Origin: Candidatus Polarisedimenticolaceae bacterium
GTDB lineage: Bacteria > Acidobacteriota > Polarisedimenticolia > Polarisedimenticolales > DASRJG01
Length of the DNA stretch: 64,000 nucleotides
Assembly (NCBI GenBank): GCA_036275915.1
Contig: DASUCV010000009.1
Location: 223,198-287,197 of the forward strand
Direction: 5' to 3'
The notes below the pieces were generated by a model. It was not told the DNA's origin and ran no database searches. It was given only the letters and a program-made list of their open reading frames with translations. Both the position numbers and the translations under genes were made by a program. Every line of letters begins with the position of its first letter. The stretch's first letter is position 1. Positions 1 to 59,491 of the stretch are shown one piece after another.

Positions 1-3000
1 GGGCGGATCGCCGGGATCACCGAGATGACATCGTCGTCCGGCTCCGGCTCGACGCAGGTCACGCTCCAGTTCGACCTCTCGCGCAACATCGACGCCGCCG
101 CCCGCGACGTGCAGGCCGCCATCAACGCGGCGCGCGGCCAGCTCCCGGCGAACCTGCCGGGCAACCCCTCCTACAAGAAGGCGAACCCCGCGGACGCGCC
201 GATCATGCTCCTGGCGCTCACCTCGGACACGGTCGAGCGCGCAAGGATGTACGACGTCGCCTCGACGATCCTGCAGCAGAAGCTCGCGGAGCTGCGCGGT
301 GTCGGCCAGGTCGTCGTCGGGGGCGGTGCGTTGCCCGCGGTCCGCGTCGAGCTCGATCCGGCGGCCGTCTACGACAGCGGCCTCGCGCTCGAGGACGTGC
401 GCACCGCCCTCGCGGCGGCGAACGCGAACCGCCCGAAGGGCGACGTGGGCGACGACAAGCGCCTCTGGTCGGTGACGACGAGCGATCAGCTCCTGAAGGC
501 CGCCGAGTACGAGCCGCTCGTCATCAGCGCCCACGGCAGCGCCGCGGTGCGCCTGGCCGACATCGCGCGCGTCACCGACTCGGTCGAGGACCTCCACGCG
601 ACCGGCCTCGCCAACGGCAAGCCCGCGATCATCCTCATCATCTTCCGGCAGCCCGGCGCCAACATCATCGAGACGGTCGACCGCATCCGCGGCGTGCTGC
701 CGCAGCTCCGGGCGTCGCTCCCGCACGGCGTCGAGCTGCAGGTCATGATCGACGCCACCCGGACGATCCGGGCGTCGGTGCGCGACGTCGAGATCACGCT
801 CTTGATCGCGATCGGGCTCGTCGTCCTCGTCGTCTTCGCCTTCCTGAGGAGCGCGCGCTCGACGTTCATCCCGAGCGTGGCGGTGCCGATCTCCCTGATC
901 GGTACGTTCGGCGTCATGTACCTCCTCGGCTACAGCATCGACAACCTGTCGCTCATGGCCCTGACGGTCGCGACCGGGTTCGTCGTCGACGACGCGATCG
1001 TCGTCGTCGAGAACGTCACGCGGCATCTCGAGGAGGGGCGGACGCCGCTCGATGCCGCCCTGATCGGCGCCAGGGAGATCGGCTTCACCGTCGTCTCGAT
1101 CAGCCTCTCGCTCATCGCGGTCTTCATCCCGATCCTCTTCATGGGCGGGATCATCGGCCGCCTGTTCCGCGAGTTCGCCGTCACCCTCTCGGTCGCGATC
1201 GCGGTGTCGCTCGTCGTGTCGCTCACGACGACTCCGATGATGTGCGCCATGCTGCTGCGCCCGCACGGCACGACGCGCCAGGGGCGTCTCGCCGCGGCCG
1301 GCGAGCGCGCGTTCGATTTCATCCTCCGCGTGTACGGGCGGGGGCTCGACTGGGTGCTCCGCCATCAGCCCCTCACGCTCGCGGTGACCCTCCTCACGAT
1401 GGCGGGCACCGCCGCGCTCTACGTCGTCGTCCCCAAGGGGTTCTTCCCGCAGCAGGACACCGGCCGCATGAACGGCTCGCTCGTCGCCGATCAGGACGCC
1501 TCGTTCCAGGCGACGAACAAGAAGCTCTCGGCCCTCGTGGCGACCGTCATGAAGGACCCGGCGATCGAGAGCGCCGCCGGCTTCATCGGCGGCTCTTCGA
1601 ACACCGGCCGCGTCTTCGTCGGCCTGAAGCCCACGAGCGAGCGGACCGCCACCCCCGATCAGGTCATCGCGCGCCTGCGCGGCAAGCTCTCCGGCGTCCC
1701 CGGCGCGACGCTCTACCTCCAGGCCGTCCAGGACGTCCGCGTCGGCGGACGGTTCGGGGCGGCGCAGTACCAGTACACGCTCCAGGGGGACGACCCCGAC
1801 GAGCTCTCGTCATGGGCGCCGCGCGTCTACGCGAAGCTGCGCAGCCTCCCCATGCTCGCCGACGTCAACACCGACCAGCAGAACAAGGGCCTGCGCGCCT
1901 CGCTCACGATCGATCGCGCCACGGCCTCGCGCCTCGGCATCACGACGCAGCGCATCGACGACACGCTCTACGACGCGTTCGGGCAGCGCCAGGTCTCGAC
2001 GATGTACACGCAGCTCAACCAGTACCACGTCGTCATGCAGGTCGACGAGAAGCTCTGGCAGAACCCCGACGGCTTGAAGAGCATCTACATCCCCTCCACG
2101 GACGGCGGGCTCGTGCCGCTGTCCGCCATCGCGCGGTTCGGGAGCGGGACGGCCCCGCTCACCGTCAATCACCAGGGGCAGTTCCCGGCGATCACGATCT
2201 CGTTCAACCTCCCGGTCGGCGTCGCCCTGGGAACGGCGATCACCGCCATCAAGCGCGCCGAGTCGGAGATCGGCCTGCCGTCGTCGATCCGCGGCAGCTT
2301 CCAGGGCACCGCGAAGGAGTTCCAGGCCTCGCTCGCCAACGAGCCGATCCTCATCCTCGCCGCCCTGCTCGCCGTCTACGTCGTCCTCGGGATCCTCTAC
2401 GAGAGCCTCATCCACCCCGTGACGATCCTCTCGACGCTTCCGTCCGCCGGCGTCGGCGCGCTGCTCGCGCTCCTCGCGACGAACACCGAGCTGTCGGTGA
2501 TCGCGCTCATCGGCATCATCCTGCTCATCGGCATCGTGAAGAAGAACGCGATCCTCATGATCGACTTCGCGATCGAGGCGGAGCGCAGCCAGGGCAAGAG
2601 TCCCGAGGAGGCGATCCGCCAGGCGTGCCTCCTGCGGTTCCGGCCGATCACGATGACCACGATGGCCGCGCTCCTGGGCGGCCTGCCGCTCGCGATCGGC
2701 GGGGGCACGGGCTCCGAGCTCCGGCGGCCGCTCGGCATCGCGATCGTCGGCGGCCTCATCTTCAGCCAGATGCTGACGCTCTTCACGACGCCGGTCGTCT
2801 ACCTCTACCTCGACCGCTTCCGTCTCGCGTGGGGACGCCTGCGCGGCAAGGCCGTCCTCCGCCCGGCGCTCTTCGCCGTGCTCGCGCTCCTCCTCACCGC
2901 GTGCGCCGTCGGGCCCGACTACAAGAGGCCGCCGGCGCCGACGCCCGACGCGTACAAGGAGCTGCCGCCCGGTGCGCAGACGCTGCGGCCCGCGAGGCCG

Positions 3001-4287
3001 GAGGACAGCCACGCGCGCGGCCCCTGGTGGGAGGTCTACGGCGATCCCGAGCTGAGCACGCTCGAGGCCCAGGTCGACGTCTCGAGCCAGACGATCGCGC
3101 AGGCCGAGGCCGAGTACCGGGGGGCGCGCGCGGCGGCGCGCCTCGCGCACGCAGGCCTGTATCCCACGATCTCCACGAACCCCTCGGTGATCCGCTCGAA
3201 GGGCGTTTCCCGGTCGACGCTCACCGCGTCCTCGTCCCCCACCACGTTCTATGAAGTCCCGGTGGACTTCTCGTGGGAGGCGGATCTCTTCGGCCGCCTG
3301 CGGCGGACCGCCGAGGAGGGCGCCGCGCAGGCGCAGGCCTCGGCCGCCGATCTCGAAGGCGTGCGCCTCGCGATGCACGCGGAACTGGCGGTCGATTACT
3401 TCGAGCTGCGCGGGCTCGATGCCGAGGCGAAGCTCTTCGACACGACGGTCGATGCGTACAACGTCGCGCTCGAGCTGACGAAGAACCGCTACGCCCAGGG
3501 CGTCGCTTCCGGCGTCGACGTCGCGCAGGCCGAGACGCAGCTCGAATCGACGCACGCCCAGGCGACCGACCTTCGCCTCCAGCGCACCCAGCTCGAGCAC
3601 GCGATCGCGGTCCTCATGGGGAAACCGCCCTCCGAGTTCTCGCTTCCACCCGGTCAACCGCTCGCCGAGCCCCCCGGCGTTCCCGTCGGACTACCGTCCG
3701 ACCTCCTCGAGCAGCGCCCCGACGTCGCCGCCGCCGAGCGGCGCGCCGCCGCAGCGAACGCCGCGATCGGCGTCGCCCAGGCGGCGTACTTCCCCTCTCT
3801 GACCCTCAGCGCGTCGGGCGGCTTCGCCAGCTCCGCGCTCGGCGACCTCTTCTCGCTTCCGAGCCGCTTCTGGTCGATCGGCGCGGCCGCGCTCGAGACG
3901 ATCTTCGATGGTGGACGCCGACGCGCGGCCAAGAACCAAGCGATCGCCGGCTACGATGCGTCCGTCGCCGCGTATCGCGAGAGCGTGCTCACCGCGCTGC
4001 AGCAGGTCGAGGACAACCTCGCAGCGCTCCGCGACCTCGAGGTGGAAGCCTCCGAGCAGGCGAAGGCGACCGCCGCCGCGGAGCGCGCGCTCTCCCTGGC
4101 GCAGAACCGCTACAAAGCCGGGATCACGTCGTACCTCGAGGTCGTCGTCGCGCAAGCGGTCGCGCTCGGCGACGAGCGGGCGTCGGTCGATCTGTCGGTG
4201 CGGCGCATGGTGGCGAGCGTCAACCTGGTCCAGGCTCTCGGCGGCGGGTGGAACGCGGAGGAGCTTCGCTCAGGACTCCAGAAATAG
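1..4287 (+). CDS. RND (HAE1, MdtB/MdtC-like) efflux permease, 5'-truncated by the window edge, continuing in frame without a stop into a NodT/OprM-type outer-membrane-factor lipoprotein
   Basis: Frame 1 is open from base 1 (GRIAGITE precedes the first ATG at 25), so the 5' end lies outside the window. The sequence is MdtC-like (SSGSGSTQVTLQFDLSRNIDAAARDVQAAINAA..., multi-TM pattern, ...TTPVVYLYLDRF). From about 2839 the same frame encodes a signal peptide plus lipobox (ALLLTAC) and AVGPDYKRP..., the hallmark N-terminus of NodT-family OMFs, ending ...LVQALGGGW. No stop codon lies between the two parts. Confidence 0.85.
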   Translation, partial: GRIAGITEMTSSSGSGSTQVTLQFDLSRNIDAAARDVQAAINAARGQLPANLPGNPSYKKANPADAPIMLLALTSDTVERARMYDVASTILQQKLAELRGVGQVVVGGGALPAVRVELDPAAVYDSGLALEDVRTALAAANANRPKGDVGDDKRLWSVTTSDQLLKAAEYEPLVISAHGSAAVRLADIARVTDSVEDLHATGLANGKPAIILIIFRQPGANIIETVDRIRGVLPQLRASLPHGVELQVMIDATRTIRASVRDVEITLLIAIGLVVLVVFAFLRSARSTFIPSVAVPISLIGTFGVMYLLGYSIDNLSLMALTVATGFVVDDAIVVVENVTRHLEEGRTPLDAALIGAREIGFTVVSISLSLIAVFIPILFMGGIIGRLFREFAVTLSVAIAVSLVVSLTTTPMMCAMLLRPHGTTRQGRLAAAGERAFDFILRVYGRGLDWVLRHQPLTLAVTLLTMAGTAALYVVVPKGFFPQQDTGRMNGSLVADQDASFQATNKKLSALVATVMKDPAIESAAGFIGGSSNTGRVFVGLKPTSERTATPDQVIARLRGKLSGVPGATLYLQAVQDVRVGGRFGAAQYQYTLQGDDPDELSSWAPRVYAKLRSLPMLADVNTDQQNKGLRASLTIDRATASRLGITTQRIDDTLYDAFGQRQVSTMYTQLNQYHVVMQVDEKLWQNPDGLKSIYIPSTDGGLVPLSAIARFGSGTAPLTVNHQGQFPAITISFNLPVGVALGTAITAIKRAESEIGLPSSIRGSFQGTAKEFQASLANEPILILAALLAVYVVLGILYESLIHPVTILSTLPSAGVGALLALLATNTELSVIALIGIILLIGIVKKNAILMIDFAIEAERSQGKSPEEAIRQACLLRFRPITMTTMAALLGGLPLAIGGGTGSELRRPLGIAIVGGLIFSQMLTLFTTPVVYLYLDRFRLAWGRLRGKAVLRPALFAVLALLLTACAVGPDYKRPPAPTPDAYKELPPGAQTLRPARPEDSHARGPWWEVYGDPELSTLEAQVDVSSQTIAQAEAEYRGARAAARLAHAGLYPTISTNPSVIRSKGVSRSTLTASSSPTTFYEVPVDFSWEADLFGRLRRTAEEGAAQAQASAADLEGVRLAMHAELAVDYFELRGLDAEAKLFDTTVDAYNVALELTKNRYAQGVASGVDVAQAETQLESTHAQATDLRLQRTQLEHAIAVLMGKPPSEFSLPPGQPLAEPPGVPVGLPSDLLEQRPDVAAAERRAAAANAAIGVAQAAYFPSLTLSASGGFASSALGDLFSLPSRFWSIGAAALETIFDGGRRRAAKNQAIAGYDASVAAYRESVLTALQQVEDNLAALRDLEVEASEQAKATAAAERALSLAQNRYKAGITSYLEVVVAQAVALGDERASVDLSVRRMVASVNLVQALGGGWNAEELRSGLQK
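2839..2904 (+). other. Internal lipoprotein signal peptide and lipobox at the RND/OMF junction
   Basis: Codons 2839-2904 read L-RGKAVLRPALFAVLALLLTAC: a basic n-region, a hydrophobic core, and the lipobox L-T-A-C with the Cys codon at 2902-2904. The only conceivable in-frame initiators nearby are CTG 2839 and GTG 2878. Confidence 0.7.
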
Positions 4288-5529
4288 CTCCCCGCTCGCC
4301 GGATCGTACGAGAACAGCTCCGCGTAGCGCCCCCAGTTGATGACGTTCTCCAGCTCCTCATCGGCGTGCTCGCCGTACTCGTCCTTGAATCGGTCGAGGA
4401 AGTAGCCGCGGTCGATGCGCTGGTTGTCGTCCTGCTGAAGCGCCTCGTAGATCTTGTTCACGACCGGGATCCGCAGCACGCGTCCCGCGATCAGCTCCTT
4501 GCGCGCGAGGATGCTCGCCTCGGCGTAGGCGGAACCCAGCGGTGCGAGCGAGAGGTCGCCCTCGGCGACCGTGAGCATGCCGAGCAGCTCGCCGAGTTCG
4601 ACGACGGGGAGGACGTCGTCGATCTCGAGGGTCAGCTCGGCGGCGAGGCGGTACAGGTCCGCGCGTCCGCCCTCGGCGGCGAGCTTCTCGACGAGACCGG
4701 CGAGCGCGTTCGGGCGTGCCTTCGGCAGGCGCCGTCCCGCCTGGCGGACCTCGCCCTCGGGCCTCGTCTTGCCCGCGACCGCCGCGTAGACGGTGTCGAC
4801 GATCGCCTGGAACGCCGTGTCCTTGCGCCGGCGTGGGTGGCGCAGCGTCACCGGGATCTCGACCACGACCCGTCCGGGGTCCTTCCCCATGACGACGATG
4901 CGGTCGGCCATGAGCACCGCCTCCTCGATGTTGTGGGTCACCATGAGGATCGCCTTCGTCGGGATGGCGTGCGACGACCACAGCTCGAGCAGCTCGCCGC
5001 GGAGCGCCTCGGCCGAGAGCACGTCGAGCGCCGAGAACGGCTCGTCGAGGCAGAGCAGCTCCGGCTCGACCGCCATCGCGCGCGCGAAGCCGACCTTCTG
5101 CCGCATCCCACCCGACAGCTCTCGGGGGTACGCCGCCTCGAAGCCGTCGAGCCCGACCATGTCGATGAGCTTGCGGGCGCGCTCCTCGCGCTCGGGGCGC
5201 GGGATGCCGCGGGCGCGGAGGGCGACCTCGACGTTCTCCTGCACGGTGAGCCACGGGTAGAGGGCGAAGGTCTGGAAGACGATCGTCGCGTGCGGGTTCA
5301 CGCCCTCGACCGGGACGCCGCGGTAGCGCACCTGCCCCTCGGTCGCGGGGCTGAGACCGGTGATCACGCGCAGGAGCGACGACTTGCCGCAGCCCGACGG
5401 GCCCAGGAGGCACACGAACTGTCCCGCATCGACCTCGAGCGAGACTCCGGAGACGGCGACGAAGAGCTTGGGGGGACGCCCGTACGTCTTCGTCACCCGG
5501 TCCACGTTGAGAAGCGCTTCTCCGCTCAT
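4270..5529 (-). CDS. ABC transporter ATP-binding protein (NitT/TauT-like) with a roughly 160-aa C-terminal extension (AAA-associated C-terminal domain type)
   Basis: Walker A GPSGCGKSS, Q-loop, signature LSGGMRQKV, Walker B LLCLDEPFSALD and H-loop VTHN are present. An extra C-terminal domain follows (...LYRLAAELTLEIDDVLPVVELGELLGML...). The 3' end overlaps the convergent RND-OMF gene by 18 bp. Confidence 0.9.
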   Translation of the reverse strand: MSGEALLNVDRVTKTYGRPPKLFVAVSGVSLEVDAGQFVCLLGPSGCGKSSLLRVITGLSPATEGQVRYRGVPVEGVNPHATIVFQTFALYPWLTVQENVEVALRARGIPRPEREERARKLIDMVGLDGFEAAYPRELSGGMRQKVGFARAMAVEPELLCLDEPFSALDVLSAEALRGELLELWSSHAIPTKAILMVTHNIEEAVLMADRIVVMGKDPGRVVVEIPVTLRHPRRRKDTAFQAIVDTVYAAVAGKTRPEGEVRQAGRRLPKARPNALAGLVEKLAAEGGRADLYRLAAELTLEIDDVLPVVELGELLGMLTVAEGDLSLAPLGSAYAEASILARKELIAGRVLRIPVVNKIYEALQQDDNQRIDRGYFLDRFKDEYGEHADEELENVINWGRYAELFSYDPASGELFLES

Positions 5530-5539
5530 GGCGTCTCCA

Positions 5540-7243
5540 TCATTCCATGCGGTAGCGCTCTTCCGCGAGCCGGTAGAGCCGCGCCCAGAACACCCGGTTG
5601 ATCAGGACCACGGTGCCGACGAGCGCCAGGGTGCCCGCGAGGAGCATCGCGTAGTTCGCGTCGGCCGTCGCGGCCGCGATCGTCGCGCCGACGCCGACGG
5701 TCTGGTGCGTCTCGCCGCCGAACTCCACGAACTCGGCGACGATGCTGGCGTTCCACGCGCCGCCCGAGGCGGTGATCGCTCCGGTGATGACGAACGGGAA
5801 GAGCGAAGGGAGGACGAGCGTGCGCCATCGCGCCGCGCGCGTGAGACGCAGGAGATCGGTCGTGTCGCGGAGGTCCCGCGGAATCGCCGAGGCTCCCGCG
5901 ATCACGTTGAAGAGCAGATACCACTGCGTCCCCATGAGCATGAGCAGAACCGCCGCCAGGTTGAGGCCGAACGGAAGGCGGAGCAGCACGATGAGGATCA
6001 CGGGGAAGAGCGCCGTCGCGGGGACCGCCGCCAAGACCTGCGCCGCCGGCTGGAGCACCCGCGCGAGCCGCGGCCTCGTCCCGATCACGTAGCCGACAGG
6101 GAGCGTCCAGGCGACGGCGATCAGGAGCGACGCGGCCACGCGCGCGAAGGTCGCGAGGAGGCCCGCGCCGATCGTCTCCCACGAGGCGAGCGACAGCGAG
6201 GCGAGGAGCGACGCGGCACGGACGGCGCCGTAGAGGACGATCGCGACGAGGACGGCCCCCGCGACCCACGCGGGCCATCGAGATTCCTCGCGCCGGGCTC
6301 TGGGCTTCGCGTCCACGGCGAGCGAGGCGCGATCCATCCGATCCCCGAGCGGCGCGATCACGCGCGTCCGGATCTCCGCGGCGAGCCGCGAGCCGTCGAG
6401 GGCGTCGCGGAACCACGACGTCTGCGGCTGCTCGCCCTCCACCGACTCGATCTTGAACTTCGTCGCCCAGGCGAGGAGCGGCCGCCACACGACCTGATCG
6501 AGGACGACGACGATGGCGACGAGCGTGACGACGCCGAGCAGCACCGCGCGAAGATCTCCCGTCGACGCCGCGGTCTGAAGGTACGAGCCGAGCCCGGGCA
6601 GGCGGAAGTCGTGCGACCCGACCTTGAAGATCTCCGACGCCATGAGGAAGAACCAGCCGCCGGCCCAGCTCATCACACTGTTCCAGATGAGGCCGATCGC
6701 GGCGAACGGCAGCTCGAGGACGCGCAGGCGCATCCACGGCGAGAGCCGGAAGATCGAGGCCGCCTCGCGGAGCTCGCTCGGGATCGTCGTGAGCGACTGG
6801 TAGAAGGAGAACGTCAGGTTCCAGGCCTGCGAGGTGAAGATGAGAACGATCGCCGCGACCTCCGCCGCCGCGCGCTGCGGGAGCACGGCGGAGAGTCCGA
6901 GGAGGACGACCGGGAGGAACGAGAGGATCGGCACGCTCTGGAGGACGTCGAGGAGCGGCATCAGGACCTTGCGCGCTCCGGGGTTCCTCGCCGCGGCGTA
7001 GCCGTAGGCCAGGCTGAACCCGAGCGACAGCGCGTAGGCGGCGGCCATCCGGCTCACCGAGAGGAGCGCGTACCACGGGAGCGCACCCGGCGACGTCGAG
7101 ATCTCCGGCCCCGCGATCGCCGTCGGCGCGAAGAAGGCGAGGCGGACGCCCGCATAGAGCAGCGCAGCGATCCCCGCGAAGATGAGGACGTCGGCGAGCG
7201 CCGGCCGCCGCGGAAGTACCGGTCCGAAACGCAGTCGCCTCAC
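5540..7243 (-). CDS. ABC transporter permease with duplicated transmembrane domains (NitT/TauT-type, 567 aa)
   Basis: The polytopic hydrophobic sequence contains two BPD-type permease halves (two EAA-like loops: ...ELREAASIFRLSPW... and ...DLRDTTDLLRLT...). It starts at GTG and overlaps the hemerythrin stop (GTGA). It lies 10 bp upstream of the ATPase gene. Confidence 0.8.
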   Translation of the reverse strand: MRRLRFGPVLPRRPALADVLIFAGIAALLYAGVRLAFFAPTAIAGPEISTSPGALPWYALLSVSRMAAAYALSLGFSLAYGYAAARNPGARKVLMPLLDVLQSVPILSFLPVVLLGLSAVLPQRAAAEVAAIVLIFTSQAWNLTFSFYQSLTTIPSELREAASIFRLSPWMRLRVLELPFAAIGLIWNSVMSWAGGWFFLMASEIFKVGSHDFRLPGLGSYLQTAASTGDLRAVLLGVVTLVAIVVVLDQVVWRPLLAWATKFKIESVEGEQPQTSWFRDALDGSRLAAEIRTRVIAPLGDRMDRASLAVDAKPRARREESRWPAWVAGAVLVAIVLYGAVRAASLLASLSLASWETIGAGLLATFARVAASLLIAVAWTLPVGYVIGTRPRLARVLQPAAQVLAAVPATALFPVILIVLLRLPFGLNLAAVLLMLMGTQWYLLFNVIAGASAIPRDLRDTTDLLRLTRAARWRTLVLPSLFPFVITGAITASGGAWNASIVAEFVEFGGETHQTVGVGATIAAATADANYAMLLAGTLALVGTVVLINRVFWARLYRLAEERYRME

Positions 7244-7731
7244 GGGAGTGGATTTCGCCGGGAGACCGCTCGCATCGCCTCTTCGGCCGTCCGGGGTACG
7301 TCGGGTCCGTCGAAATGGGGCGCGAGCTTGACCGCGGGATAGGCTCGCATCGCGTCGAGCGCTGCGGCGACGTCTCCGGCGGACAGGCCGTCGCAGCTTG
7401 CGTAGACGCCGCCCGCACCTTCCTCACGCTCGTTGTGACCGATCAGAATCGAGCGAATCTCTTCGATGATCGCGGCCGTGGGCGTCGGTACGAGGAGGAG
7501 CGCGAGTGCACCGTGCTCCCGATGCAGCCGGGCAATGATGGACTTGTCGATCTCACCTTTGATCGCCGGGAAGAGGATCTTCTCCTCGATCCCGATATGC
7601 CGCAGCAGCCCCGCGCGGAGATCCTCGTAGCTCGCACGATCGACCTCGCCGGACGGCGTCACCGCCGATGCGAGCAGCGCGTCGAGCCGCTCGTGATCGG
7701 CGGCGAGGAACTTGAGAATCGGTCCCGCCAT
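7240..7731 (-). CDS. Hemerythrin-like (HHE cation-binding) domain protein, 163 aa
   Basis: His/Glu ligand pattern typical of hemerythrin-like domains: AADHERLD, RHIGIEEKILFP, LHREHGAL, IGHNEREE. There is no signal peptide. A 4-bp overlap joins it to the downstream permease gene. Confidence 0.7.
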   Translation of the reverse strand: MAGPILKFLAADHERLDALLASAVTPSGEVDRASYEDLRAGLLRHIGIEEKILFPAIKGEIDKSIIARLHREHGALALLLVPTPTAAIIEEIRSILIGHNEREEGAGGVYASCDGLSAGDVAAALDAMRAYPAVKLAPHFDGPDVPRTAEEAMRAVSRRNPLP

Positions 7732-11508: not shown

Positions 11509-13983
11509 CTACCCCGGCGCCTTCTTCGCAGCCTCCGCGATGGCGTGGCTGCGCGCCTTCGCGGCCGCCGCGGCGGTCCGATCCCCCGTCGTCTCGTAGA
11601 CCGCGGCGAGCGCGTCCAAGTCCTCGATGAGATCCGGCGAATCCTTCCCCGACGCCTTCTCGTCGATCGCGAGCGTGCGCTCGTACAGATGTTTCGCGGC
11701 CGTCAGGTCGCCCGCGGCGCGGTGCACGTCGCCGAGCGAGAAAAGGACCATCGACACCGCGGGGTTGTCCGGCCCGAACTTCTTCTCGCGGATGGCGAGC
11801 GCGCGCTCGAGCGGCTCCTTGGCGGCGGCGGGGTTGCCGGATTGGATCCGCGCGTAGCCGATGTTGTAGAGCGTCTGCGCGACCCTCGGATGGTCGGGAC
11901 CGTACGCCTTCTCCATCGTGTGCAAGGTCCGCTCGAGCATCGGGAACGCCTTGTCGAACTGCTCGAGCTGCGCGTACGCGAGCGACACGTTGCCGAGCGC
12001 CTCGATCACCTCGCGGCTCTCCGGGTCGAGGAACTTCTCGCGGATGGCGAGCGCGCGCTCGAAATTCGAGAGCGCGCGGTCCAGGTGGCCGGTCCGCTGC
12101 TCGAGGACGCCGCGGTTCGTGAGGAGATCGGCGACATCGAGCGATCCGTCGTCGCCCGCGGCGTGAAGGAGAGCGACCCCTTCGTCGAGGTCCTTCTTCG
12201 CCCCCTCGAGATCGTCGACGTCGGTCTTGACCGAGGCACTGTCGACGAGGAATCGTGCCCTCTCGGCCGGGCTCGCATCGGGGGTCGCGGCAAGGATGGC
12301 CCGTGCGCGTTCGAGCGGCGCCAAGGCGGCCTTGGACTCCTTCATCTCTCCGAGCAGCCAGCCGTAACCGGTCAGCGCGCGCGCCAGCGCGAGGCTCGGA
12401 GCGCCGGCGTCGAGGATCGCGATCGCCTCCTCGTATTCCTTCCGGGACGACGTGTAGTCGCCGAGTCCTTCGAGCGTCTTGGCGAGCAGGACCTTCCCTT
12501 CCGCGACCTCGGTGGCTCCTCCGCCGAGCTGCGCCGTCCGGACCTTGACGCTGTCCTCGATCAGCGGCCGCGCGCGCGCGTAGAGACCGAGCCGCTCGTA
12601 GACGTCGGCGATCGCCGCCATGAGACGCGCCCGTACCAGCGGATCCTGCGCCAGCTCGAGACGGATCCGATCGGCTCCGCGGTCCAAGATCTCGCGCGCG
12701 GTGATCTGCTCGCTTCGTGCGCGGTCGGGCTTGCTGACGTCGAAGAGCCCGACGAGGAAGTCGTAGGTGTGCTTCGCGGTGCCGGCTTCCTCGCGGGCCG
12801 ATTTCTCCGCCGCCAGGGCGCGCGCGAGGTTCCTCTCGGAGCGAATGTAGAGGAACGACATGCCGATCGCCGCGACGACGGTCAGAAGAACGACGACGGC
12901 GGCCGCCGCGAACGCGCCTCGGTGGCGGGCGACGAGCTTGCGGATCTGGTAGATCGTGCTCGGCGGATGCGCGAGGATCGGCTCGCTGGCAAGCCAGCGG
13001 CGCACGTCCTCGCCGAGGGCTGCGACGCTCGCATAGCGCTGCTCGGGGTCCTTCTCGAGCGCCTTACGCACGATCGTCTGGAGATCGGCGTCGGGACGTC
13101 CCGGCCCCGGCCAATCCTTGGCGAGCGGGCGCGGCTCGACCTCGCTGATCGTACGAATGGCGTCGGCGAAGACCGACGGCACGTCGTAGGGCGGCTTGTC
13201 GACGAGCATCTCGTAGAGGATCAGGCCGAGCGCGTAGACGTCGGTGCGCACGTCGACGGCGGCGGGGTTGCCTTTCACCTGCTCCGGGCTCATGTAGGGG
13301 ACGGTGCCGCGGACGACGCCGGCGACGCTCGCGGGCGGCGCGCCCTCCTGATCGGGGTCGGTGAGCCGTGCGAGGCCGAAGTCCAGGACCTTGACGATCG
13401 GTCGCGTCGCATACGAGGTGTCGCTGCCCCGCGAATGTGACGGAGCGGACTCCGGCGGCAGCACGATGAGGTTCGACGGCTTGAGGTCGCGGTGGATCAC
13501 GCCGCGCTGATGTGCGTAGTGGACGGCGTCGCACGCGGCGAGGATGATCTCGAGCCGCTCGCGGAGCGCGGCCATGGTCCGCGGCCTCTCGCCGTGCCGC
13601 GCCGCAAGCCACGCGTGAAGGGTCTCGCCGGGAACCAGCTCCATCGCGAACCAGTGGTGCCCGTCGTCCGTGCGCCCAGACTCGAGGATCGCCGCGATCC
13701 CCGGGTGGACGAGGCGCGCGAGCATATCGGCCTCGCGGCGGAAGAGGCGCACGTGCAGCTCGCTGGCGATCGCGCCGCCCCTCACGACCTTGAGCGCGAC
13801 GCGGCGCCTCGGCGTCTCCTGCTCCGCCTCGAAGACGGTGCCGAATCCTCCCTCGCCGAGCTTTCGCAGCAGGCGGAATCCGGGCACGGCGACGGCCGAG
13901 AGAGGGACGGAGCCCTCGGGAATCGCGACGCCTCCCGTCGTCGCGGTCGGCGGGTCGGCCTTCGGGAATTCGCGGCCGGTCAT
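11509..13983 (-). CDS. Membrane Ser/Thr protein kinase with extracytoplasmic TPR repeats, 824 aa
   Basis: Hanks kinase motifs GEGGFGTVFEA, VALK, HRDLKPSN, DFGLAR and SPEQ. One TM segment (AFAAAAVVVLLTVVAAIGMSFLYI). The C-terminal half has repeated TPR-like units (...ALxxxExALAIxEKxxGPDHP...). Confidence 0.9.
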   Translation of the reverse strand: MTGREFPKADPPTATTGGVAIPEGSVPLSAVAVPGFRLLRKLGEGGFGTVFEAEQETPRRRVALKVVRGGAIASELHVRLFRREADMLARLVHPGIAAILESGRTDDGHHWFAMELVPGETLHAWLAARHGERPRTMAALRERLEIILAACDAVHYAHQRGVIHRDLKPSNLIVLPPESAPSHSRGSDTSYATRPIVKVLDFGLARLTDPDQEGAPPASVAGVVRGTVPYMSPEQVKGNPAAVDVRTDVYALGLILYEMLVDKPPYDVPSVFADAIRTISEVEPRPLAKDWPGPGRPDADLQTIVRKALEKDPEQRYASVAALGEDVRRWLASEPILAHPPSTIYQIRKLVARHRGAFAAAAVVVLLTVVAAIGMSFLYIRSERNLARALAAEKSAREEAGTAKHTYDFLVGLFDVSKPDRARSEQITAREILDRGADRIRLELAQDPLVRARLMAAIADVYERLGLYARARPLIEDSVKVRTAQLGGGATEVAEGKVLLAKTLEGLGDYTSSRKEYEEAIAILDAGAPSLALARALTGYGWLLGEMKESKAALAPLERARAILAATPDASPAERARFLVDSASVKTDVDDLEGAKKDLDEGVALLHAAGDDGSLDVADLLTNRGVLEQRTGHLDRALSNFERALAIREKFLDPESREVIEALGNVSLAYAQLEQFDKAFPMLERTLHTMEKAYGPDHPRVAQTLYNIGYARIQSGNPAAAKEPLERALAIREKKFGPDNPAVSMVLFSLGDVHRAAGDLTAAKHLYERTLAIDEKASGKDSPDLIEDLDALAAVYETTGDRTAAAAAKARSHAIAEAAKKAPG

Positions 13984-16652
13984 GGCTTCGGGAGCTCCTG
14001 CGTCCAGTTCGACACCACGACGATCGGTGCCGCGCCTTCGGAGGCGAGCGTGTTGACCACGAACGTCGCGCCGTCCGCCGCCATGTCGAGCGTGGAGTAA
14101 CCGGGGCGAAGGAGCACGCGGAAGAGCGGCGTCTCGGCACCCGGCTGCATCGACCTGGCCGCGAGCGGGACGCTCACGATCGTCCCGTCGGAACGCCAGT
14201 AGACGAGCTCACGATCGCCGGGGCCCCACTGCGGCAGCACGCCGCCGTGGGGCGAGATCTGGATACGGCTTCCGTCGCCCGTACCCGGCGCAGGCGCGAT
14301 GAAGACCTGAGGCTGACCCCCGCTCACGACGCCGTACGCGATGAAGCGCCCGTCATGCGAGATGCGTGCGAAGCTCAGGTTCTTGGTGCCCGTGTCCAGC
14401 CACTGAATCGATCCCGTGCCGTCCGCGGACGCGACGCCGAGGCGGTCCGCGAGCGTGGTGTTCCAGTTGCCGGAGCCGACGAGGAGCTTGCGGCCGTCCG
14501 CCGACCAGTCGACGGGCCACAGGTCTTCCTTGTCGGCCTTGAGAACCGTGCGCCCCGGCCCTCCGTCCGAGGCCATGACCATGACCGCGTAATCCCCGGG
14601 CTGATGCGTCGTCGCGACGTTCTTCGTGTACGCGATCCACCGGCCGTCGGGTGAGAACAACGGAACGTCCTCGTCCTCGTCACCGGTGGTGAGCCGCCGC
14701 GCGGCGCCCCGCTCGATGTCGTACACGAAGATGTCGCCGCTCGGCGTGAGCTGCGAGGAGTAGGCGATCCGTTTGCCGTCGTGCGAGAGCCGCACGGCGA
14801 AGTGGTTCCCGACCTCCGCGACCTTGCGCAGAAGCTTGCCGCTGCGGTCGCGAATCTGGATCTCGCTTCCCTGCGTCCCTCCGGTGGGCTGGTAGACGAG
14901 GACTCCCTTCTCGGTCACCGACACGTTGGCCTTCCAGGTCGAAGGGTCGAATTGCACGCGATCGGCGGTCGGTCGCGGCTCTCCCGTGAACTCCGCCTTC
15001 CTGGGATCGAACGGCCGCGCGATGAGCACGCTGTCCTGCACGTAGAAGAGGTAGCCGCCCGCGTACTGCGCATCGGTCGCGCACGGGACGAGCGTGCGAT
15101 TCTCTTTGCCGTCGAGCGAAGCGACCCAGACCGAATTCTCCTGGCCACCGACGTCGTCGTGATTGCCGGCGTAGTAGAGCAGGTGCTTCCCGTCGGGAAG
15201 GAAGTGCGGCCACCGGTGCGTGGTTTGCTTCGACGAGGCGAGGGTCGTCGCGGGTTGCGGCGTTCCACCCATCGCGGACACCTGCTGGAGCGCCGTCCGG
15301 TAGTCCGGAGAGAACACGATGACGCCGGAGGCGCTCCACGTTCCCCCGCGTCCGCCCGGCGCGGGACAGATCGCCATGACCTGCCGCGTGTCGATGTCGA
15401 CGCGCTTCAATTTCAGATCCGCGAAGAAGCCGAGCGAGTGCCCGTCCGGCGACCAGAACGGGTAGGTGGCGCTCTCCGTGCCGGGGATCGGCTCGGCCTT
15501 CAGCGAGGCGAGATCGCGCAGCCAGATCGAAGCGCCGCCTCGGTCGTCGACGGCGACGAACGCCACGCGCTTGCCGTCGGGCGAGATCACCGGCGGTCCC
15601 GCGTTGTCGCCCCCAAAGAGGAAGAGCGCGCCCTCGGGCGGCGTGACGATCGTGCGCATGACGCGTGCATCGTCCCCGTGACGGAGCGCGAGCAGCGCGA
15701 ACAGGGCGAGCGCGACGCCGAGCGCGCCGACGATCCAGCCGGTCCAGGCGATTCGCGGTCGCTTCATCGTCGCGACCGGCGCCGCACCGGCGGAGCTGCC
15801 CTCGCCGATCCAACGAAGTTGCAGGCGGACGTCGTGCGCGGTCTGGATCCGCTCGTCGGGATCCTTGACCAGGCACATGCGGATCAGATGGTCGAGCGCG
15901 GGAGGCGTCGTCGGCATCAGCTCCGCCGCCGGCCGCGGCGCGTCGCGCATGATCGCCGAGATCAAGCTCGCCTGCGTGGCGCCCTCGAACGCGCGCTTGC
16001 CGGTCGCCATCTCGTAGAGCACGCAGCCGAACGCCCACAGATCGGCGCGCGCGTCGGACTCGCGCCCCTCGAGCTGCTCCGGCGCCATGTACTGGAACGT
16101 GCCGAGGATCGTCCCCTCCGCCGTGAGCGGCGCCGCCACCGTGGGCGAGCTCGTCATCTCGCCTGGGCGCCCGAGGCCGGTCGCGCGCGCCAGGCCGAAG
16201 TCCATGAGCTTCGCCCCGGACTTTGTGAGCATCACGTTCCCCGGCTTGAGATCGCGATGCGAGACGCCGGCGCGATGCGCCCGGTCGAGCGCGTCCGCGA
16301 TCTGGCCGCCGATCCGCAGCACGTCGGCGAGCGGCAGCGCCCCCTTCGCGAGCCGTTGCGCGAGCGTCTCGCCCTCGATCAGCTCCATGACGAGGTAGTC
16401 GGTGTCGCCCTGGCGCCCGACGTCGTGGAGAGTGCAGACGTTCGGATGGTTCAGCGAGGAGACGGCCTTGGCCTCGCGCTCGAACCGCGCGCGGATCTCT
16501 GGGTTCGACGAGAGGTGCTGCGGCAGCACCTTGATCGCGACCTCGCGGCCGAGCCGCGTGTCCTTCGCGCGATAGACCTCGCCCATCCCTCCCGCGCCGA
16601 GCGGTGATGTGATCTCGTAGGGGCCCAGCTGGGTTCCGGACGCGAGCGGCAC
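13980..16652 (-). CDS. Membrane Ser/Thr protein kinase with C-terminal TolB-like beta-propeller repeats, 890 aa
   Basis: Motifs GAGGMGEVYRA, VAIK, HRDLKPGN, DFGLAR and APEQ. TM segment WIVGALGVALALFALLAL. The C-terminus has repeated WD40-like/TolB units (...FSPDGKRVAF..., WSPDGHSLGF, FLPDGKHLLY, LSHDGKRIAY, FSPDGRWIAY, WSADGRKLL...). A 4-bp overlap joins it to the downstream kinase gene. Confidence 0.9.
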   Translation of the reverse strand: MPLASGTQLGPYEITSPLGAGGMGEVYRAKDTRLGREVAIKVLPQHLSSNPEIRARFEREAKAVSSLNHPNVCTLHDVGRQGDTDYLVMELIEGETLAQRLAKGALPLADVLRIGGQIADALDRAHRAGVSHRDLKPGNVMLTKSGAKLMDFGLARATGLGRPGEMTSSPTVAAPLTAEGTILGTFQYMAPEQLEGRESDARADLWAFGCVLYEMATGKRAFEGATQASLISAIMRDAPRPAAELMPTTPPALDHLIRMCLVKDPDERIQTAHDVRLQLRWIGEGSSAGAAPVATMKRPRIAWTGWIVGALGVALALFALLALRHGDDARVMRTIVTPPEGALFLFGGDNAGPPVISPDGKRVAFVAVDDRGGASIWLRDLASLKAEPIPGTESATYPFWSPDGHSLGFFADLKLKRVDIDTRQVMAICPAPGGRGGTWSASGVIVFSPDYRTALQQVSAMGGTPQPATTLASSKQTTHRWPHFLPDGKHLLYYAGNHDDVGGQENSVWVASLDGKENRTLVPCATDAQYAGGYLFYVQDSVLIARPFDPRKAEFTGEPRPTADRVQFDPSTWKANVSVTEKGVLVYQPTGGTQGSEIQIRDRSGKLLRKVAEVGNHFAVRLSHDGKRIAYSSQLTPSGDIFVYDIERGAARRLTTGDEDEDVPLFSPDGRWIAYTKNVATTHQPGDYAVMVMASDGGPGRTVLKADKEDLWPVDWSADGRKLLVGSGNWNTTLADRLGVASADGTGSIQWLDTGTKNLSFARISHDGRFIAYGVVSGGQPQVFIAPAPGTGDGSRIQISPHGGVLPQWGPGDRELVYWRSDGTIVSVPLAARSMQPGAETPLFRVLLRPGYSTLDMAADGATFVVNTLASEGAAPIVVVSNWTQELPKP

Positions 16653-52615: not shown

Positions 52616-52827
52616 GCCTCCTAGAACGGTTCGTCGACGAGAGATTCCTCACGCACCGGTTGCGCTCGACGAGCATCGCCGGAATGGCCGGAGTGCTGAC
52701 GGCGTGGGGCATCTTCATGTACCGCTATCTGGCGCAGAGCCGCTTCAGCGCCGATCTGTTTGCCGTCATCGCCGTCATGGCGGTCGCGAAGCTGGCGGCG
52801 ATGGCCTGGTTTTACTCGAGACACTGA
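52612..52827 (+). CDS. Small two-TM membrane protein, 71 aa, translationally coupled to the XRE gene
   Basis: MSLLERFVDERFLTHRLRSTSIAGMAGVLTAWGIFMYRYLAQSRFSADLFAVIAVMAVAKLAAMAWFYSRH has two hydrophobic helices and an ATGA overlap with the regulator gene. Confidence 0.55.
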   Translation: MSLLERFVDERFLTHRLRSTSIAGMAGVLTAWGIFMYRYLAQSRFSADLFAVIAVMAVAKLAAMAWFYSRH

Positions 52828-52837
52828 GGAGAACACC

Positions 52838-53044
52838 GTGATCCAGAACCCACGCACGATCTTCCGTCTCGCGATGGCGTCGCTCTTGGTCATGCTCGTG
52901 TGGCCGAGGGTGGTCGGTCCATTCTTGAAGCTCGGCACCGACTGGAGCGACGGCCTTCGCGGCCTTTTCCTCGGGCTGACGATCGGCTTGCTCTTCGTCT
53001 CGATGCGGCTGAAATCGCGCGGGCAGCGAGAGCAACGACCCTAG
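52838..53044 (+). CDS. Small two-TM membrane protein, 68 aa
   Basis: GTG 52838 has GAGGAG 6 nt upstream. [68 protein letters not shown] has two hydrophobic helices and a basic tail. The stop overlaps the convergent molybdoenzyme gene by 4 bp. Confidence 0.45.
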
Positions 53045-55236
53045 GTCCGCCCCGCCCACGAATACCCGCTCTTCGACAGCGGCAGCTTGCGGACCCGCTC
53101 GCCGGTCGCGGCGAAGATCGCGTTCGTGATCGAAGGCAGTACCGGAGGCAGCGCCGGCTCGCCGAGGCCGGTCGGCGGGTTGTCGCTCTCCAGGAAGTGC
53201 GCGTCGATCGCCGGCGGCGCCTCGGACATGCGCAGCGGCATGTACTCGGGGAGGCTCCCCTGCACGGCGCGCCCGCGGTCGAAGGTGATCTCGAGCCTCA
53301 TCACCTGGCTCAGGCCGTCGATCACGGAACCTTGTACCTGCTGCGTGGCGCTGCTCGGATTGATGATCGGCCGGCCGATGTCCATCGCGACCCAGACCTT
53401 GTTGACGCTCACCGCCTTGTTCTGATCGACGCTCAGCTCGGACACGATGGCGCAGTAGCCGTAATGGCAGAAGTGGCCGGCGATACCGAGGGCGGTTCCG
53501 TCGGGCAGCAATCTCGCACCCCAGCCCGCCTTCGAGGCCGCCAGTTCGTACACGCCGCGCATGCGCTTCGGGTTGAAGCGCGCCAGGGCGTTCCCGCCTT
53601 CTTCTTCCGGGAGCGGGGTCGCGTCGAGCATTGCGAGGCGGAACTGGAGCGGGTCCTTGCCGGCCGCGGCGGCCAGCTCGTCGAGGAACGATTGGATGAC
53701 GAAGCAGATGCCGTTGTCGCCCGGCGCGCGCAAGGCGCCGGTGGGGACGCCGAGCGGCATGACGGAGGAGTGTAGGGTGAAGTTCGGGATGAACCGCGCC
53801 GGGAACTGATCGCCGCCCATGCCCGCGGAGCGTGCGAAGCGCTCGCCCTCGCCGAAGCTGATGAAATGGTCGCGCCAGGCGACAGGCTTGCCGGCCGCGT
53901 CGACACCGGCCTTCAGATAATGGAAGCCGGCCGGGCGATAGAAGTCGTGACGCATGTCGTCTTCGCGCGTCCAGAGCAGCTTCACCGGGGCCTTCATCTT
54001 CTGCGCGATGGCCGCGGCCTCGACCATGTAGTCGTTGTTCAGCCGGCGGCCGAAGCAGCTTCCCATGCGCGTGAGGTGGATCGTGATGTCGCTCTCGGCG
54101 ACGCCGAGCGTCTGCGAGACCAGCTCCCGGCCGCTTTGCGGTGTCTGCGTCGGCGCCCAGATCTCGAGCTTCGATCCGTTGAAGCGCGCGGTGCAGTTCA
54201 TGACCTCCGCCGAAGCGTGCGCGAGGAACGGGTAGAAGTAGGCAGCTTCCACGGTCTTCGCGGCGGAGCCGAGCGCGGCGTCGACGTTGCCGTCGCTGCG
54301 CAGCGTGCGCGCGGGCGGCTTTCCCGACAGCTCCTCCGCGCGGCGCGCGAACTCGTCGGTGCTCTGGTCGGTCTTGGCGCCTTCGTTCCACTTCACCTCG
54401 AGCTTGCCGCGGGCCTTCTGCGCCGCCCACCAGCTGTCCGCGACGATCGCGACGCCGCCGAGCAATCCCGCGAGCCCGGATTGGCCTTCGATGACGAAGG
54501 CGCTTCTCACGCCCGGCATCGCCTTGATCGCGTCGAGGTTGGCCGAGACGACCTTCCCGCCGAAGACCGGGCACTTCTCGAAGACGGCCGCGAGCATCCC
54601 CGGCACGACGACGTCGATCCCGAAGAGCGGCTTGCCGGTGACGATCGCGAGGTTGTCGACGCCCGGAGTGGGGCGGCCGATGATCGTGAACGCCTTCGGG
54701 TCTTTGAGCGTGAGCGTCGCGAGATCCGGCGGCGACAACCGTGAGGCGCTCGCCGCAAGCTCGCCGTACGTCGCCGCGCGCTTCGTCGGGCGGTGCGTGA
54801 CGTGGCCCCCGGCCGTGGTGCACTCGGACTCCGGCACCTTCCACCGCTGCGCGGCGGCGCGGACGAGCATGAGGCGCGCCGCGGCGCCCGCCTGGCGCAT
54901 CGGCAGCCATTGGTTCGGCACCGCCACGCTGCCGCCGGCGAATTGATCGCCGTATTTCTCGTCGTAGTCGGCCTGCTCGACCCGGACGTCCTTCCAGTCC
55001 ACGTCGAGCTCGTCGGCGATCAGCATCGGCAGCGTCGCCTTGATGCCCTGCCCGACCTCGGGGTTCTTTCCGATGATCGTGATCGCCCCGCCGGCGTCGA
55101 TGCGCACGAAGGCGTTGAGGATGGAGGACGAAGCGGCCGAATCCTTGGCGAGCGTGTGGACGCCGAGCAGCATCCCGCCGCCGGCGATGGCGCTGACTTT
55201 CAGGAACGTGCGACGCGGGACCGCTGTGATCTCCAC
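53041..55236 (-). CDS. Xanthine-dehydrogenase-family molybdopterin-binding subunit (IorB / aldehyde-oxidoreductase large subunit type) with a Tat signal
   Basis: The N-terminus [30 protein letters not shown] is a twin-arginine signal. 731 aa with typical IorB-like blocks (...[18 protein letters not shown]..., ...CFGRRL..., ...[23 protein letters not shown]...). Confidence 0.9.
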
Positions 55237-55245
55237 GGCGGCGCT

Positions 55246-55701
55246 CTACGCCCGGCCCGAGGCCCTGCGCACCGCCTCGCGGATCCGCAGGTAGGTGCCG
55301 CACCGGCACAGGACGCCGTCCATCGCCGCGTCGATCTGCGCGTCGGTCGGCTGGGGCGTCCTCGCGAGGAGGGCGGCGGCCGTCATGATCTGCCCCGCCT
55401 GGCAGTAGCCGCACTGCGGAACGTCGACCGCCATCCATGCCTTCTGGACCGCATGCGTTCCGTCGCCCGAGAGCCCCTCGATCGTCGTGATCCGTTTCCC
55501 GGCGACGCTACCGACGGTCGTGACGCAGGAGCGCGTCGCCTCGCCTTCGACGTGCACGGTGCACATGCCGCAGACCGACATGCCGCAGCCGTACTTGGTG
55601 CCCTTGAGGTCGAGAACGTCGCGCAGCACCCAGAGGAGCGGCATGTCCGCCGGCGCGTCGACCGTCCGTGGCTGCCCGTTGACGTTGAGCTTGACCGGCA
55701 T
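55246..55701 (-). CDS. (2Fe-2S)-binding small subunit of the molybdoenzyme (IorA type), 151 aa
   Basis: ATG 55701 is preceded by GGGGGAGG. The two cluster motifs are [12 protein letters not shown] and CGYCQAG...CRCG. Confidence 0.9.
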
Positions 55702-55792
55702 CGCGTCACCTCCCCCGTCGAGGTTAACGCGAGTCGGACGAGGCAGCGAGCCGATGTCGTGCCGGCTCGCTGCCTCGTGATGACGAGCTAGC

Positions 55793-58700: not shown

Positions 58701-59491
58701 TCCATGAGCGGACGGACCACGCTGTAGCCGATGTCCGTGGAGGCGCCGGCGAGGAAGCCGGAGACGCCGTACGAGATCCCCGTGGTGCCGGTACCGTCGT
58801 TCTTCGAGGCGATCTCCCCCCACACGCCGGTGCCGTGATCGTCGCCGAACGGATCCCAGGGGATGCGCCCGACGACGCTGATGGGCGGCAGGTCCACATG
58901 GTTGAAGTTGATCCAGTACTCGACGTCGCACACCTTGACGCCCGAGCCGGTCCAGCCGCGGGACCAGGCGTTGCGCGCATCGATCCCGTTCGGCGCGGCG
59001 TCGAGGTAGTCCTGGTAAGGGTTGGCCGGCGGCTGCGAGTAGTCGGGTGCCGTCGGCGACTCTACGGGCTTGGGCACGAAGTACGCAGCCTCGACGCTCG
59101 GGTAACGCTCGAGAATCTCCTTCGCGTGCACGGCGGTCATCCCCGGAGGGAGCTGCAGGCGGAAGTAATTGTTGAGATCGGGGAGCGGCTTGGTGCGATT
59201 CGCCTGACCGTTCTGGCGCAGGCGGTCGAGCACCTCTTCGGCGACCGAGTGCGTGCGATCCCAGCTCTCCTCGCCGAAGGCGCCGAGGATGCCCCGGAGA
59301 TCCGATTGGACGGAGGATTGGCCTCCGACATCGGTGGGGCGTCCCTGACGCAGGCGGACCGTCGTCCCCTCCTTGAACTTCACGTCGAGGAGATTCGGCT
59401 CGTAGCCGGAATCGATCACCGGAGGCGCCGCGAAGGCCAAGCCTCCGGCCAAGATGACGGACAGGACGACCGCGAGCTTCGTGATGTTCAT
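55793..59491 (-). CDS. 1232-aa secreted multidomain protein: propeptide, S8 subtilisin-like peptidase, right-handed parallel beta-helix region, beta-sandwich-like region, MopE-like Cys/Asp motif and a C-terminal domain
   Basis: ATG 59491-59489. Signal peptide [22 protein letters not shown]8 triad contexts are KVCDVEY (Asp), GDDHGTGV (His) and [12 protein letters not shown] (Ser). This is followed by ...[27 protein letters not shown]... and repeated GGG(I/L/M/V)-type beta-helix turns. [40 protein letters not shown] is encoded at nt 56132-56250. Confidence 0.85.

Follow-up and report, generated by a model that had tools for sequence, protein, structure and literature searches.

A single open reading frame (ORF) that joins two components of a tripartite efflux pump lies at the start of the stretch of DNA analysed here, a window of 64,000 nucleotides from a Candidatus Polarisedimenticolaceae (Acidobacteriota) metagenome-assembled genome (MAG). 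Frame 1 is open without interruption from nucleotide 1 to the stop codon at 4285–4287 (translation of window positions 1–4290), and encodes a resistance-nodulation-division (RND) permease followed by an outer membrane factor (OMF). The MdtC/MuxC-like RND (HAE-1) permease occupies positions 1–2811 of the plus strand, the twelfth transmembrane helix (TM12) ending at about nucleotide 2811 (...LTLFTTPVVYLYL); the window begins within this gene, and its 5′ 74 codons, encoding the 74-residue RND N-terminus, lie outside. The mature NodT-type OMF (461 residues, 2902–4284) and its stop codon occupy 2902–4287 of the same strand. The complete product, referred to here as P0275, is NCBI HEX4824231.1, a protein of 1502 residues encoded on a 432-kb contig of the MAG, identical (100%) to the window translation and annotated as ‘multidrug efflux RND transporter permease subunit’.

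Profile searches account for both halves. In the window ORF, Pfam ACR_tran covers residues 2–937 (996 bits) and OEP the C-terminal part, comprising the last ~460 residues; among NCBIfam models, the first half of the ORF is nearest to MdtC/MuxC-type RND permeases. The full product matches NF033617 (RND_permease_2) over profile positions 1–1009 of 1009 with 1308.3 bits, passing the cut-off of 1250, and scores 1418.7 bits against the MdtC equivalog NF007905, under its cut-off of 1774; the product is therefore called MdtC-like rather than MdtC. TIGR01845 (outer_NodT, cut-off 210) is matched over positions 1–460 of 460 with 436–440 bits (window and full product), and the mature OMF alone scores 429 bits (10–460 of 460), within the range of 416–449 bits spanned by its unfused orthologues. 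Because the RND and OMF profiles are matched at full length in the same frame, a chance open frame in GC-rich DNA is ruled out. The gene is an MdtC-like RND permease running into a complete NodT-type OMF as one ORF.

The sequence of the junction, ...TTPVVYLYLDRFRLAWGRLRGKAVLRPALFAVLALLLTAC with the Cys codon TGC at 2902–2904 and AVGPDYKRP thereafter, has the anatomy of a lipoprotein signal peptide. Immediately past TM12 lies a basic segment, DRFRLAWGRLRGKAVLRP (2812–2865, plus strand), with six Lys/Arg residues. Unfused relatives have homologous tails, among them DRFRLRWERLRRKAVRRPVPAEGKA and DRLRLAIGRLRARVLGRPLPEGSRA, each of which ends there at a stop codon; by this homology, the segment is the remnant of a cytoplasmic RND C-terminal tail, now serving as a signal-peptide n-region. 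It is followed by the hydrophobic h-region ALFAVLALLLTA (2866–2901, plus strand), for which we propose the role of a 13th transmembrane helix in N-in, C-out orientation; the uncharged stretch ahead of the Cys measures 13 residues. The lipobox L-T-A-C (2893–2904, plus strand) ends in the predicted diacylglyceryl site, Cys 2902–2904, and signal peptidase II is predicted to cut between this residue and the preceding Ala (2899–2901). The features expected of a Sec/signal peptidase II precursor are thus assembled in order, from an n-region reading RLRGKAVLRP through the h-region to a lipobox of the pattern [LVI][ASTVI][GAS]C, and the product carries Ala at position +2 after the Cys. The signal peptide is internal rather than N-terminal: it begins ~1020 residues into the full protein, with no canonical start ahead of it in the junction.

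Two in-frame codons of the junction (2806–2904) resemble starts. CTG (2839–2841, plus strand) is the sole non-canonical candidate that would yield a full signal peptide, and GTG (2878–2880, plus strand) is the sole canonical in-frame start; the latter stands 8 codons before the Cys and is too late for a signal peptide. In-frame ATG and TTG codons are absent, and the nearest in-frame ATG upstream, at 2770, falls within TM12. The original prediction, made from the DNA of the window, had described the RND frame as reading stop-free into an intact lipoprotein signal peptide with lipobox L-T-A-C and then into about 460 residues of NodT/OprM-like OMF, with CTG 2839 and GTG 2878 as the only possible starts in a junction devoid of in-frame ATG or TTG; the frame, the signal peptide, the OMF and the inventory of start codons all hold.

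The closest genomes and metagenome contigs, from Thermoanaerobaculia and other Acidobacteriota, carry the same components as two genes, with RND C-termini 84–92% and OMFs 50–60% identical to those of the window. The RND stop codon is present in 15 of 15 unfused relatives; in most of them the OMF start codon overlaps it as (A/G/T)TGA, and a GGAGA motif lies just 5′ of the stop/start overlap. The OMF of these relatives is in a different frame from the RND. Their RND tail and OMF signal peptide together span a median of 50 residues, compared to 30 in the window (counted from the D of ‘DR’ to the Cys). In the window, RLAWGRLRGKAVLRPA shares homology with the tails of the relatives, for example RLAIGRLRARVLGRPLPEGSRA, which is closed by its stop codon; the residues that come next, LFAVLALLLTAC, match the h-region and lipobox of the relatives' OMF signal peptides. 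Alignment of the DNA with more distant relatives opens a gap of ~45–60 nucleotides in the window (range 45–62, borders approximate), which takes in the end of the tail, the Shine-Dalgarno (SD) sequence, the overlapping stop and start codons and the n-region of the OMF. In the other two frames of the junction, neither an RND tail nor the beginning of an OMF has left a trace.

Among individual loci, the nearest RND is that of P0284, 89% identical and unfused. Gene calls at the P0284 locus give the order marR-MFP-mdtB-mdtC-omf-DctQM-DctP (MFP, membrane fusion protein), with an mdtC product of 1037 residues and an omf product of 487 residues whose gene overlaps mdtC by 4 nucleotides. DctQM and DctP are also found downstream in the window, which is syntenic with the P0284 locus. 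Scans of the genome and metagenome collections returned no second instance of the same junction and no relative more than ~60% identical in the OMF.

Judged from these alignments, the window fusion is a derived and apparently lineage-specific deletion. A deletion of ~45–60 nucleotides would have removed the last codons and the stop codon of an mdtC-like gene together with the ribosome-binding site, the overlapping OMF start codon and the OMF n-region, and would thereby have joined the two genes in frame. Three simpler origins were considered and rejected. Simple loss of the stop codon does not fit with the two genes of the relatives lying in different frames; a one-nucleotide indel error does not fit with the absence of the SD sequence, the start codon and the tail remnants from every frame; and a chimeric join does not fit with the synteny of both flanks. 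Neither a lost stop codon nor a one-nucleotide error is sufficient, because the relatives' frames differ, ~45–60 nucleotides are gone and the other frames hold no remnants.

The same architecture occurs elsewhere. A search of 1.84 billion cluster representatives with the junction, combined with two full-length searches, brought up 37 RND–OMF fusions of full length (1466–1547 residues), plus partial ones, so that the search for further single ORFs of roughly 1500 residues, put forward along with the original prediction, succeeded. Such fusions are frequent in metagenomes, and the carriers are uncultured soil bacteria. We delimited the class as a single ORF of ~1500 residues comprising a full RND, a basic linker of 22–45 residues with an h-region and a lipobox Cys, and a full OMF; P0275 has the pattern common to 34 other clean fused proteins. 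Several fusions were re-assembled independently, in identical or nearly identical form, by different projects: P0283, P0397 and P0398 (JGI twice, ENA once); P0282, P0399 and P0400 (JGI and two ENA contigs of 268 and 457 kb); and the pairs P0278/P0395 and P0290/P0403. Apparent fusions with garbled frames from error-prone assemblies (P0006, P0007, P0010, P0011 and P0085) were discarded, and the first protein search with a 350-residue junction query, which returned only proteins of at most 607 residues, many with garbled frames, was set aside as evidence.

Many of the seeming RND–OMF fusions in metagenome protein sets stem from frameshift-ridden assemblies; L042 (ENA ERZ25039509 contig_157625) and P0132 are examples, with broken genes and arginine-rich garbled stretches. 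A census of RND–OMF fusions must filter such assemblies. Two partial proteins, P0142 (566 residues) and P0205 (789 residues), are RND–OMF fusions of a more distant RND family, with junctions that contain a hydrophobic stretch and no lipobox Cys (...LLLVSFTSAKASLFTVGPDYKQP and ...LAPGSEAALWKIGPDYQKP); their sequences suggest an internal type I (Ala-X-Ala-like) signal instead of a lipoprotein signal. The full-length searches were topped by RND-only proteins of ~2100 residues (P0276, 2095; P0277, 2065; P0279, 2197; P0281, 2146; P0405, 2131 residues), which look like MdtB–MdtC double-RND fusions; operons of this type would thus harbour another sort of subunit fusion besides RND–OMF.

The linkers of the fusions evolve fast and tolerate indels, and they retain the features of a signal peptide. 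All 35 cleanly parsed junctions contain 3–9 Lys/Arg residues in the linker, an uncharged stretch of 13–31 residues and a [GAS]-Cys pair, and the lipobox Cys (C1042 in P0275) does not vary across an alignment of 19 fusions. This pattern of linker evolution is that of signal peptides. A junction Met is absent in about half of the 35 parsed fusions and, where found, is unconserved within clades; an internal start in a usable place is lacking in most fusions. In the DNA of two fused loci, L067 and L069, no ATG, GTG or TTG stands at a usable position, and the OMF is intact. At a further locus, L068 (GCA_037025665.1), the operon reads marR-MFP-mdtB-mdtC::omf; no separate OMF gene was called within the ~16.5-kb locus, so the fused OMF appears to be the sole OMF of the operon.

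To gauge how often the fusion arose, we placed 213 RND domains, 37 of them fused, on a neighbour-joining tree and counted state changes by Fitch parsimony. Parsimony gave ~12 state changes, hence about 12 separate fused clades, and 13–14 fused-only groups; the counts are to be read as orders of magnitude because the tree is a rough distance tree of a biased sample. P0275 is a singleton in this tree; its nearest neighbour is unfused (89%), and the nearest fused protein is 72% identical. Elsewhere in the tree the fusion is kept across groups whose RND identity reaches down to 76% (seven members), 74% (four members), 68% (four members) and 51% (three members). Two fused proteins, P0131 and P0273, share 58% identity along their full 1500 residues, and no gap interrupts their aligned junction. 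These comparisons show a fusion that is recurrent and stably inherited, and hence compatible with function. The recurrence is explained by the arrangement of the parental genes: the genes overlap by 4 nucleotides, the upstream product ends in the cytoplasm and the downstream one starts with a signal peptide, so that any small deletion that keeps the frame would create a precursor which the cell's own peptidase could separate again.

Taken together, a model for the fused gene emerges. We consider it likely that the locus is a genuine fusion gene encoding an RND–OMF polyprotein, in which the signal peptide acts as a 13th helix and signal peptidase II would free a lipidated OMF. The C-terminus of RND permeases is cytoplasmic, as seen in the AcrB and MexB structures. 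The basic tail remnant would hold the h-region in an N-in, C-out orientation, as the n-region of a signal peptide does, and the h-region would insert after TM12 as a 13th helix, whereupon the 461-residue OMF domain would be translocated by Sec. Lgt would then add diacylglyceryl to the Cys (Cys968 in the window frame), and LspA (signal peptidase II) would cut just before the lipidated residue. The mature lipoprotein, N-acylated and with Ala at +2, would be carried by Lol to the outer membrane and there form the usual exit duct, while the RND would retain the signal peptide as an extra C-terminal helix. No specific role is expected for the 13th helix because its sequence is unconserved. Cleavage seems to be required, since the usual mature N-terminus follows the Cys without a spacer and an uncleaved chain could not span the periplasm; the invariant Cys also points to cleavage. 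We infer that the fusion is near-neutral or mildly useful, as it would dispense with separate initiation and provide equimolar synthesis. Of the three alternatives offered by the original prediction, this one, a genuine fusion with release by signal peptidase II, is favoured by the comparative data, namely the recurrence of the fusion, its persistence and the features kept at the junction, with the processing step itself predicted.

Several points weigh against this reading. The exact junction was seen on a single contig in a single short-read MAG assembly, the protein being alone in its 90% cluster. As the closest relative is unfused, the fusion event may be recent. Cleavage, lipidation and retention of the 13th helix are all predicted steps. 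Initiation at CTG 2839, with GGGGA upstream, is a conceivable route to the OMF. Furthermore, should MdtB2C-type heterotrimers form, one OMF per MdtC would mismatch the 3:3 stoichiometry of the pump, which argues against a stoichiometric advantage. A bolder proposal, that RND–OMF polyproteins are an undescribed and positively selected strategy of tripartite pumps, with a permanent 13th helix, Lgt and LspA acting on an internal site and the channel freed beside its own pump, is one that we hold tentatively and regard as doubtful.

The best-surviving rival to the cleaved polyprotein is that the junction is an artefact or the gene is dead: either the assembly or the consensus is wrong at this point, or one strain recently underwent a deleterious deletion that leaves the OMF unexpressed or trapped in an incipient pseudogene. 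The exact sequence is found in one assembly only, all close relatives are unfused, and many database fusions are artefacts of error-prone assemblies, as the five garbled proteins discarded above and the fragmented L042 illustrate. An indel of one nucleotide would, however, leave the SD sequence, the start codon and the full tail, none of which is present in any frame, and the relatives are set apart from the window by a gap of ~45–60 nucleotides; the syntenic flanks speak against a chimeric join. Both domains are full length, the OMF score of 429 bits is in the range of functional orthologues (416–449), and the neighbouring genes of the window are long and intact, with full-length domain matches. 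Equivalent fusions have been assembled from independent samples and conserved over long evolutionary times, which implies that such a deletion is viable. We regard an artefact or a recent deleterious deletion as unlikely, with a small share of probability left to it because the junction was seen once. The original prediction had offered stop-codon loss or an assembly error as its third alternative: the former falls to the frame difference and the gap, and the latter keeps a low probability on account of the single assembly. Its proposed alignment of orthologous junctions showed separate genes in the relatives, with a stop codon and, in most, an overlapping start, in a different frame and across the gap in the window.

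Less probable still is internal initiation, in which the OMF would be translated from CTG 2839, or with lower likelihood from GTG 2878 or ATG 2770, as a prolipoprotein of ~50 kDa, with the read-through product minor or non-functional. Translation begun at CTG 2839 would open with M-RGKAVLRPALFAVLALLLTAC, which has the classic form of a lipoprotein signal peptide; GGGGA stands 3 nucleotides upstream with a pairing energy to the anti-SD sequence of −5.5 kcal/mol, the best pairing upstream of this codon; and some fused homologues (P0272, P0296 and P0004) have an in-frame Met in the linker. CTG starts are, however, very rare in bacteria. Pairing at least as good as that of the CTG 2839 site is found at 23% of the codons of the ORF, and its −5.5 kcal/mol compares with −6.2 to −7.4 kcal/mol at the relatives' real sites, on a measure that is weakly discriminating. 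GTG 2878 has no SD-like signal (−1.7 kcal/mol) and would be separated from the Cys by only 8 residues. The window has lost both the GGAGA motif and the (A/G)TGA overlap of the relatives, the linker Met of the homologues is unconserved within clades, and both L067/L069, with an intact OMF and no usable ATG, GTG or TTG, and the half or so of fused homologues that lack a junction Met argue against internal initiation. The second alternative of the original prediction, non-canonical internal initiation, thus gained no positive support, there being no usable canonical start and an unremarkable SD-like signal at CTG 2839. Last, an uncleaved tether, a single polypeptide with the OMF covalently bound to the inner-membrane pump, draws no direct support beyond the predicted status of cleavage and is geometrically implausible and very improbable, since the Cys is followed without a spacer by the same mature N-terminus (C-AVGPDYKRP...) as in free OMFs, the OMF N-terminus is at the outer membrane in solved structures such as OprM so that a zero-length link cannot span the periplasm, and an invariant lipobox Cys would be hard to explain unless lipidation and processing take place there.

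Around the fusion, the neighbouring genes have long, uninterrupted frames whose domain matches are full length. A convergent gene for an ABC-type ATPase (4270–5529, minus strand; Pfam ABC_tran and AAA_assoc_C) shares its last 18 nucleotides with the 3′ end of the OMF gene and marks the end of the efflux operon. Next to it lies an ORF of 633 residues (5526–7427, minus strand) without a Pfam match; this pair separates the OMF from DctQM/DctP in the window, whereas DctQM adjoins the OMF in the P0284 locus. Farther away, three large Ser/Thr protein kinases with C-terminal TPR or PD40 beta-propeller domains are encoded on the minus strand (11509–13983, 13980–16652 and 60320–63154), the first two being adjacent with a 4-nucleotide overlap. 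Two long minus-strand ORFs (52775–55438, 887 residues; 55788–58931, 1047 residues) match no Pfam family at E ≤ 1e-5 and may be real novel genes or spurious frames in GC-rich DNA.

The polyprotein reading can be set against known systems. The window gene shares its families (MdtC-like RND, TIGR01845 OMF) with MdtABC/MuxABC-OpmB-type operons, and the order marR-MFP-mdtB-mdtC-omf recurs in its relatives, both at the P0284 locus and in the fused L068. In the known systems, however, the OMF has its own gene, start codon and N-terminal signal peptide, whereas mdtC and omf form one ORF in the window and the signal is internal. Thony-Meyer, James and Hennecke (PNAS 1991) reportedly described how the fbcH product of Bradyrhizobium japonicum is split into cytochromes b and c1, the cut falling at a signal peptide within the chain. 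As in the sequence anatomy of the window, the ORF there starts with a polytopic protein of the inner membrane whose C-terminus is cytoplasmic and goes on through an internal signal peptide into an exported protein; processing of FbcH yields two subunits of one complex, while that of the window product is predicted. FbcH differs in being cut by type I signal peptidase and in having both products at the inner membrane, whereas the window signal is a type II lipobox and the predicted product must be carried by Lol to the outer membrane. Hayashi et al. (J Biol Chem 1985) reportedly showed that E. coli modifies and processes prolipoprotein signal sequences placed inside a chain. In such engineered constructs (E. 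coli, B. subtilis) the signal likewise stands internally, behind extra N-terminal sequence, and is reported to be lipid-modified and cleaved, but the extensions are artificial, short and soluble, unlike the natural 1000-residue, 12-helix transporter of the window. With the Hayashi and FbcH precedents, the polyprotein mechanism is plausible.

Adjacent genes of one membrane machine are fused in other cases as well. SecDF of Thermus is one chain, a subunit fusion in the RND superfamily (PMC8277102), and the ~2100-residue proteins resembling an MdtB–MdtC double RND are comparable; these join partners in the same membrane that need no cleavage, whereas the RND–OMF fusion joins components of two membranes. 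Our literature searches, aimed at natural RND–OMF fusions and at internal lipoprotein signals, returned nothing relevant. The fusions named in a large review of tripartite pumps are of other kinds, and a survey of outer-membrane pore families describes fusion as rare among such proteins, with no RND example in its list. None of the solved chains among the best PDB matches spans the RND and the OMF together. Databases label the architecture with generic names or, in IMG, with a double TIGRFAM label. The parts are thus ordinary (MdtC-like RND, NodT OMF, lipobox), and it is the fused architecture for which we found no published description. As a class, the RND–OMF fusion is well supported, and at the window locus reasonably so, with the processing predicted from the sequence.

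What would follow if the polyprotein reading is true concerns both the pump and the export machinery. Lgt, LspA, Lnt and Lol would handle, in a native substrate, a signal peptide that stands behind a 12-helix protein of 1000 residues, and the RND pump would carry, as an additional helix, a signal peptide that is not its own. On the bolder proposal of positive selection, the class would also offer a natural polyprotein processed by signal peptidase II into two products in different membranes, with synthesis, stoichiometry and perhaps assembly of pump and channel coupled in cis. The recurrence suggests a rule, that a protein with a cytoplasmic C-terminus and a downstream gene for a secreted protein may be fused almost neutrally because signal peptidase would separate the products again. 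For annotation, the OMF of such an operon is hidden because the 1500-residue proteins are named only ‘RND permease subunit’, and lipoprotein predictors restricted to N-termini miss the internal signal. For the family, the fusions would constitute natural constructs with which to study the order of pump assembly and the targeting of the OMF.

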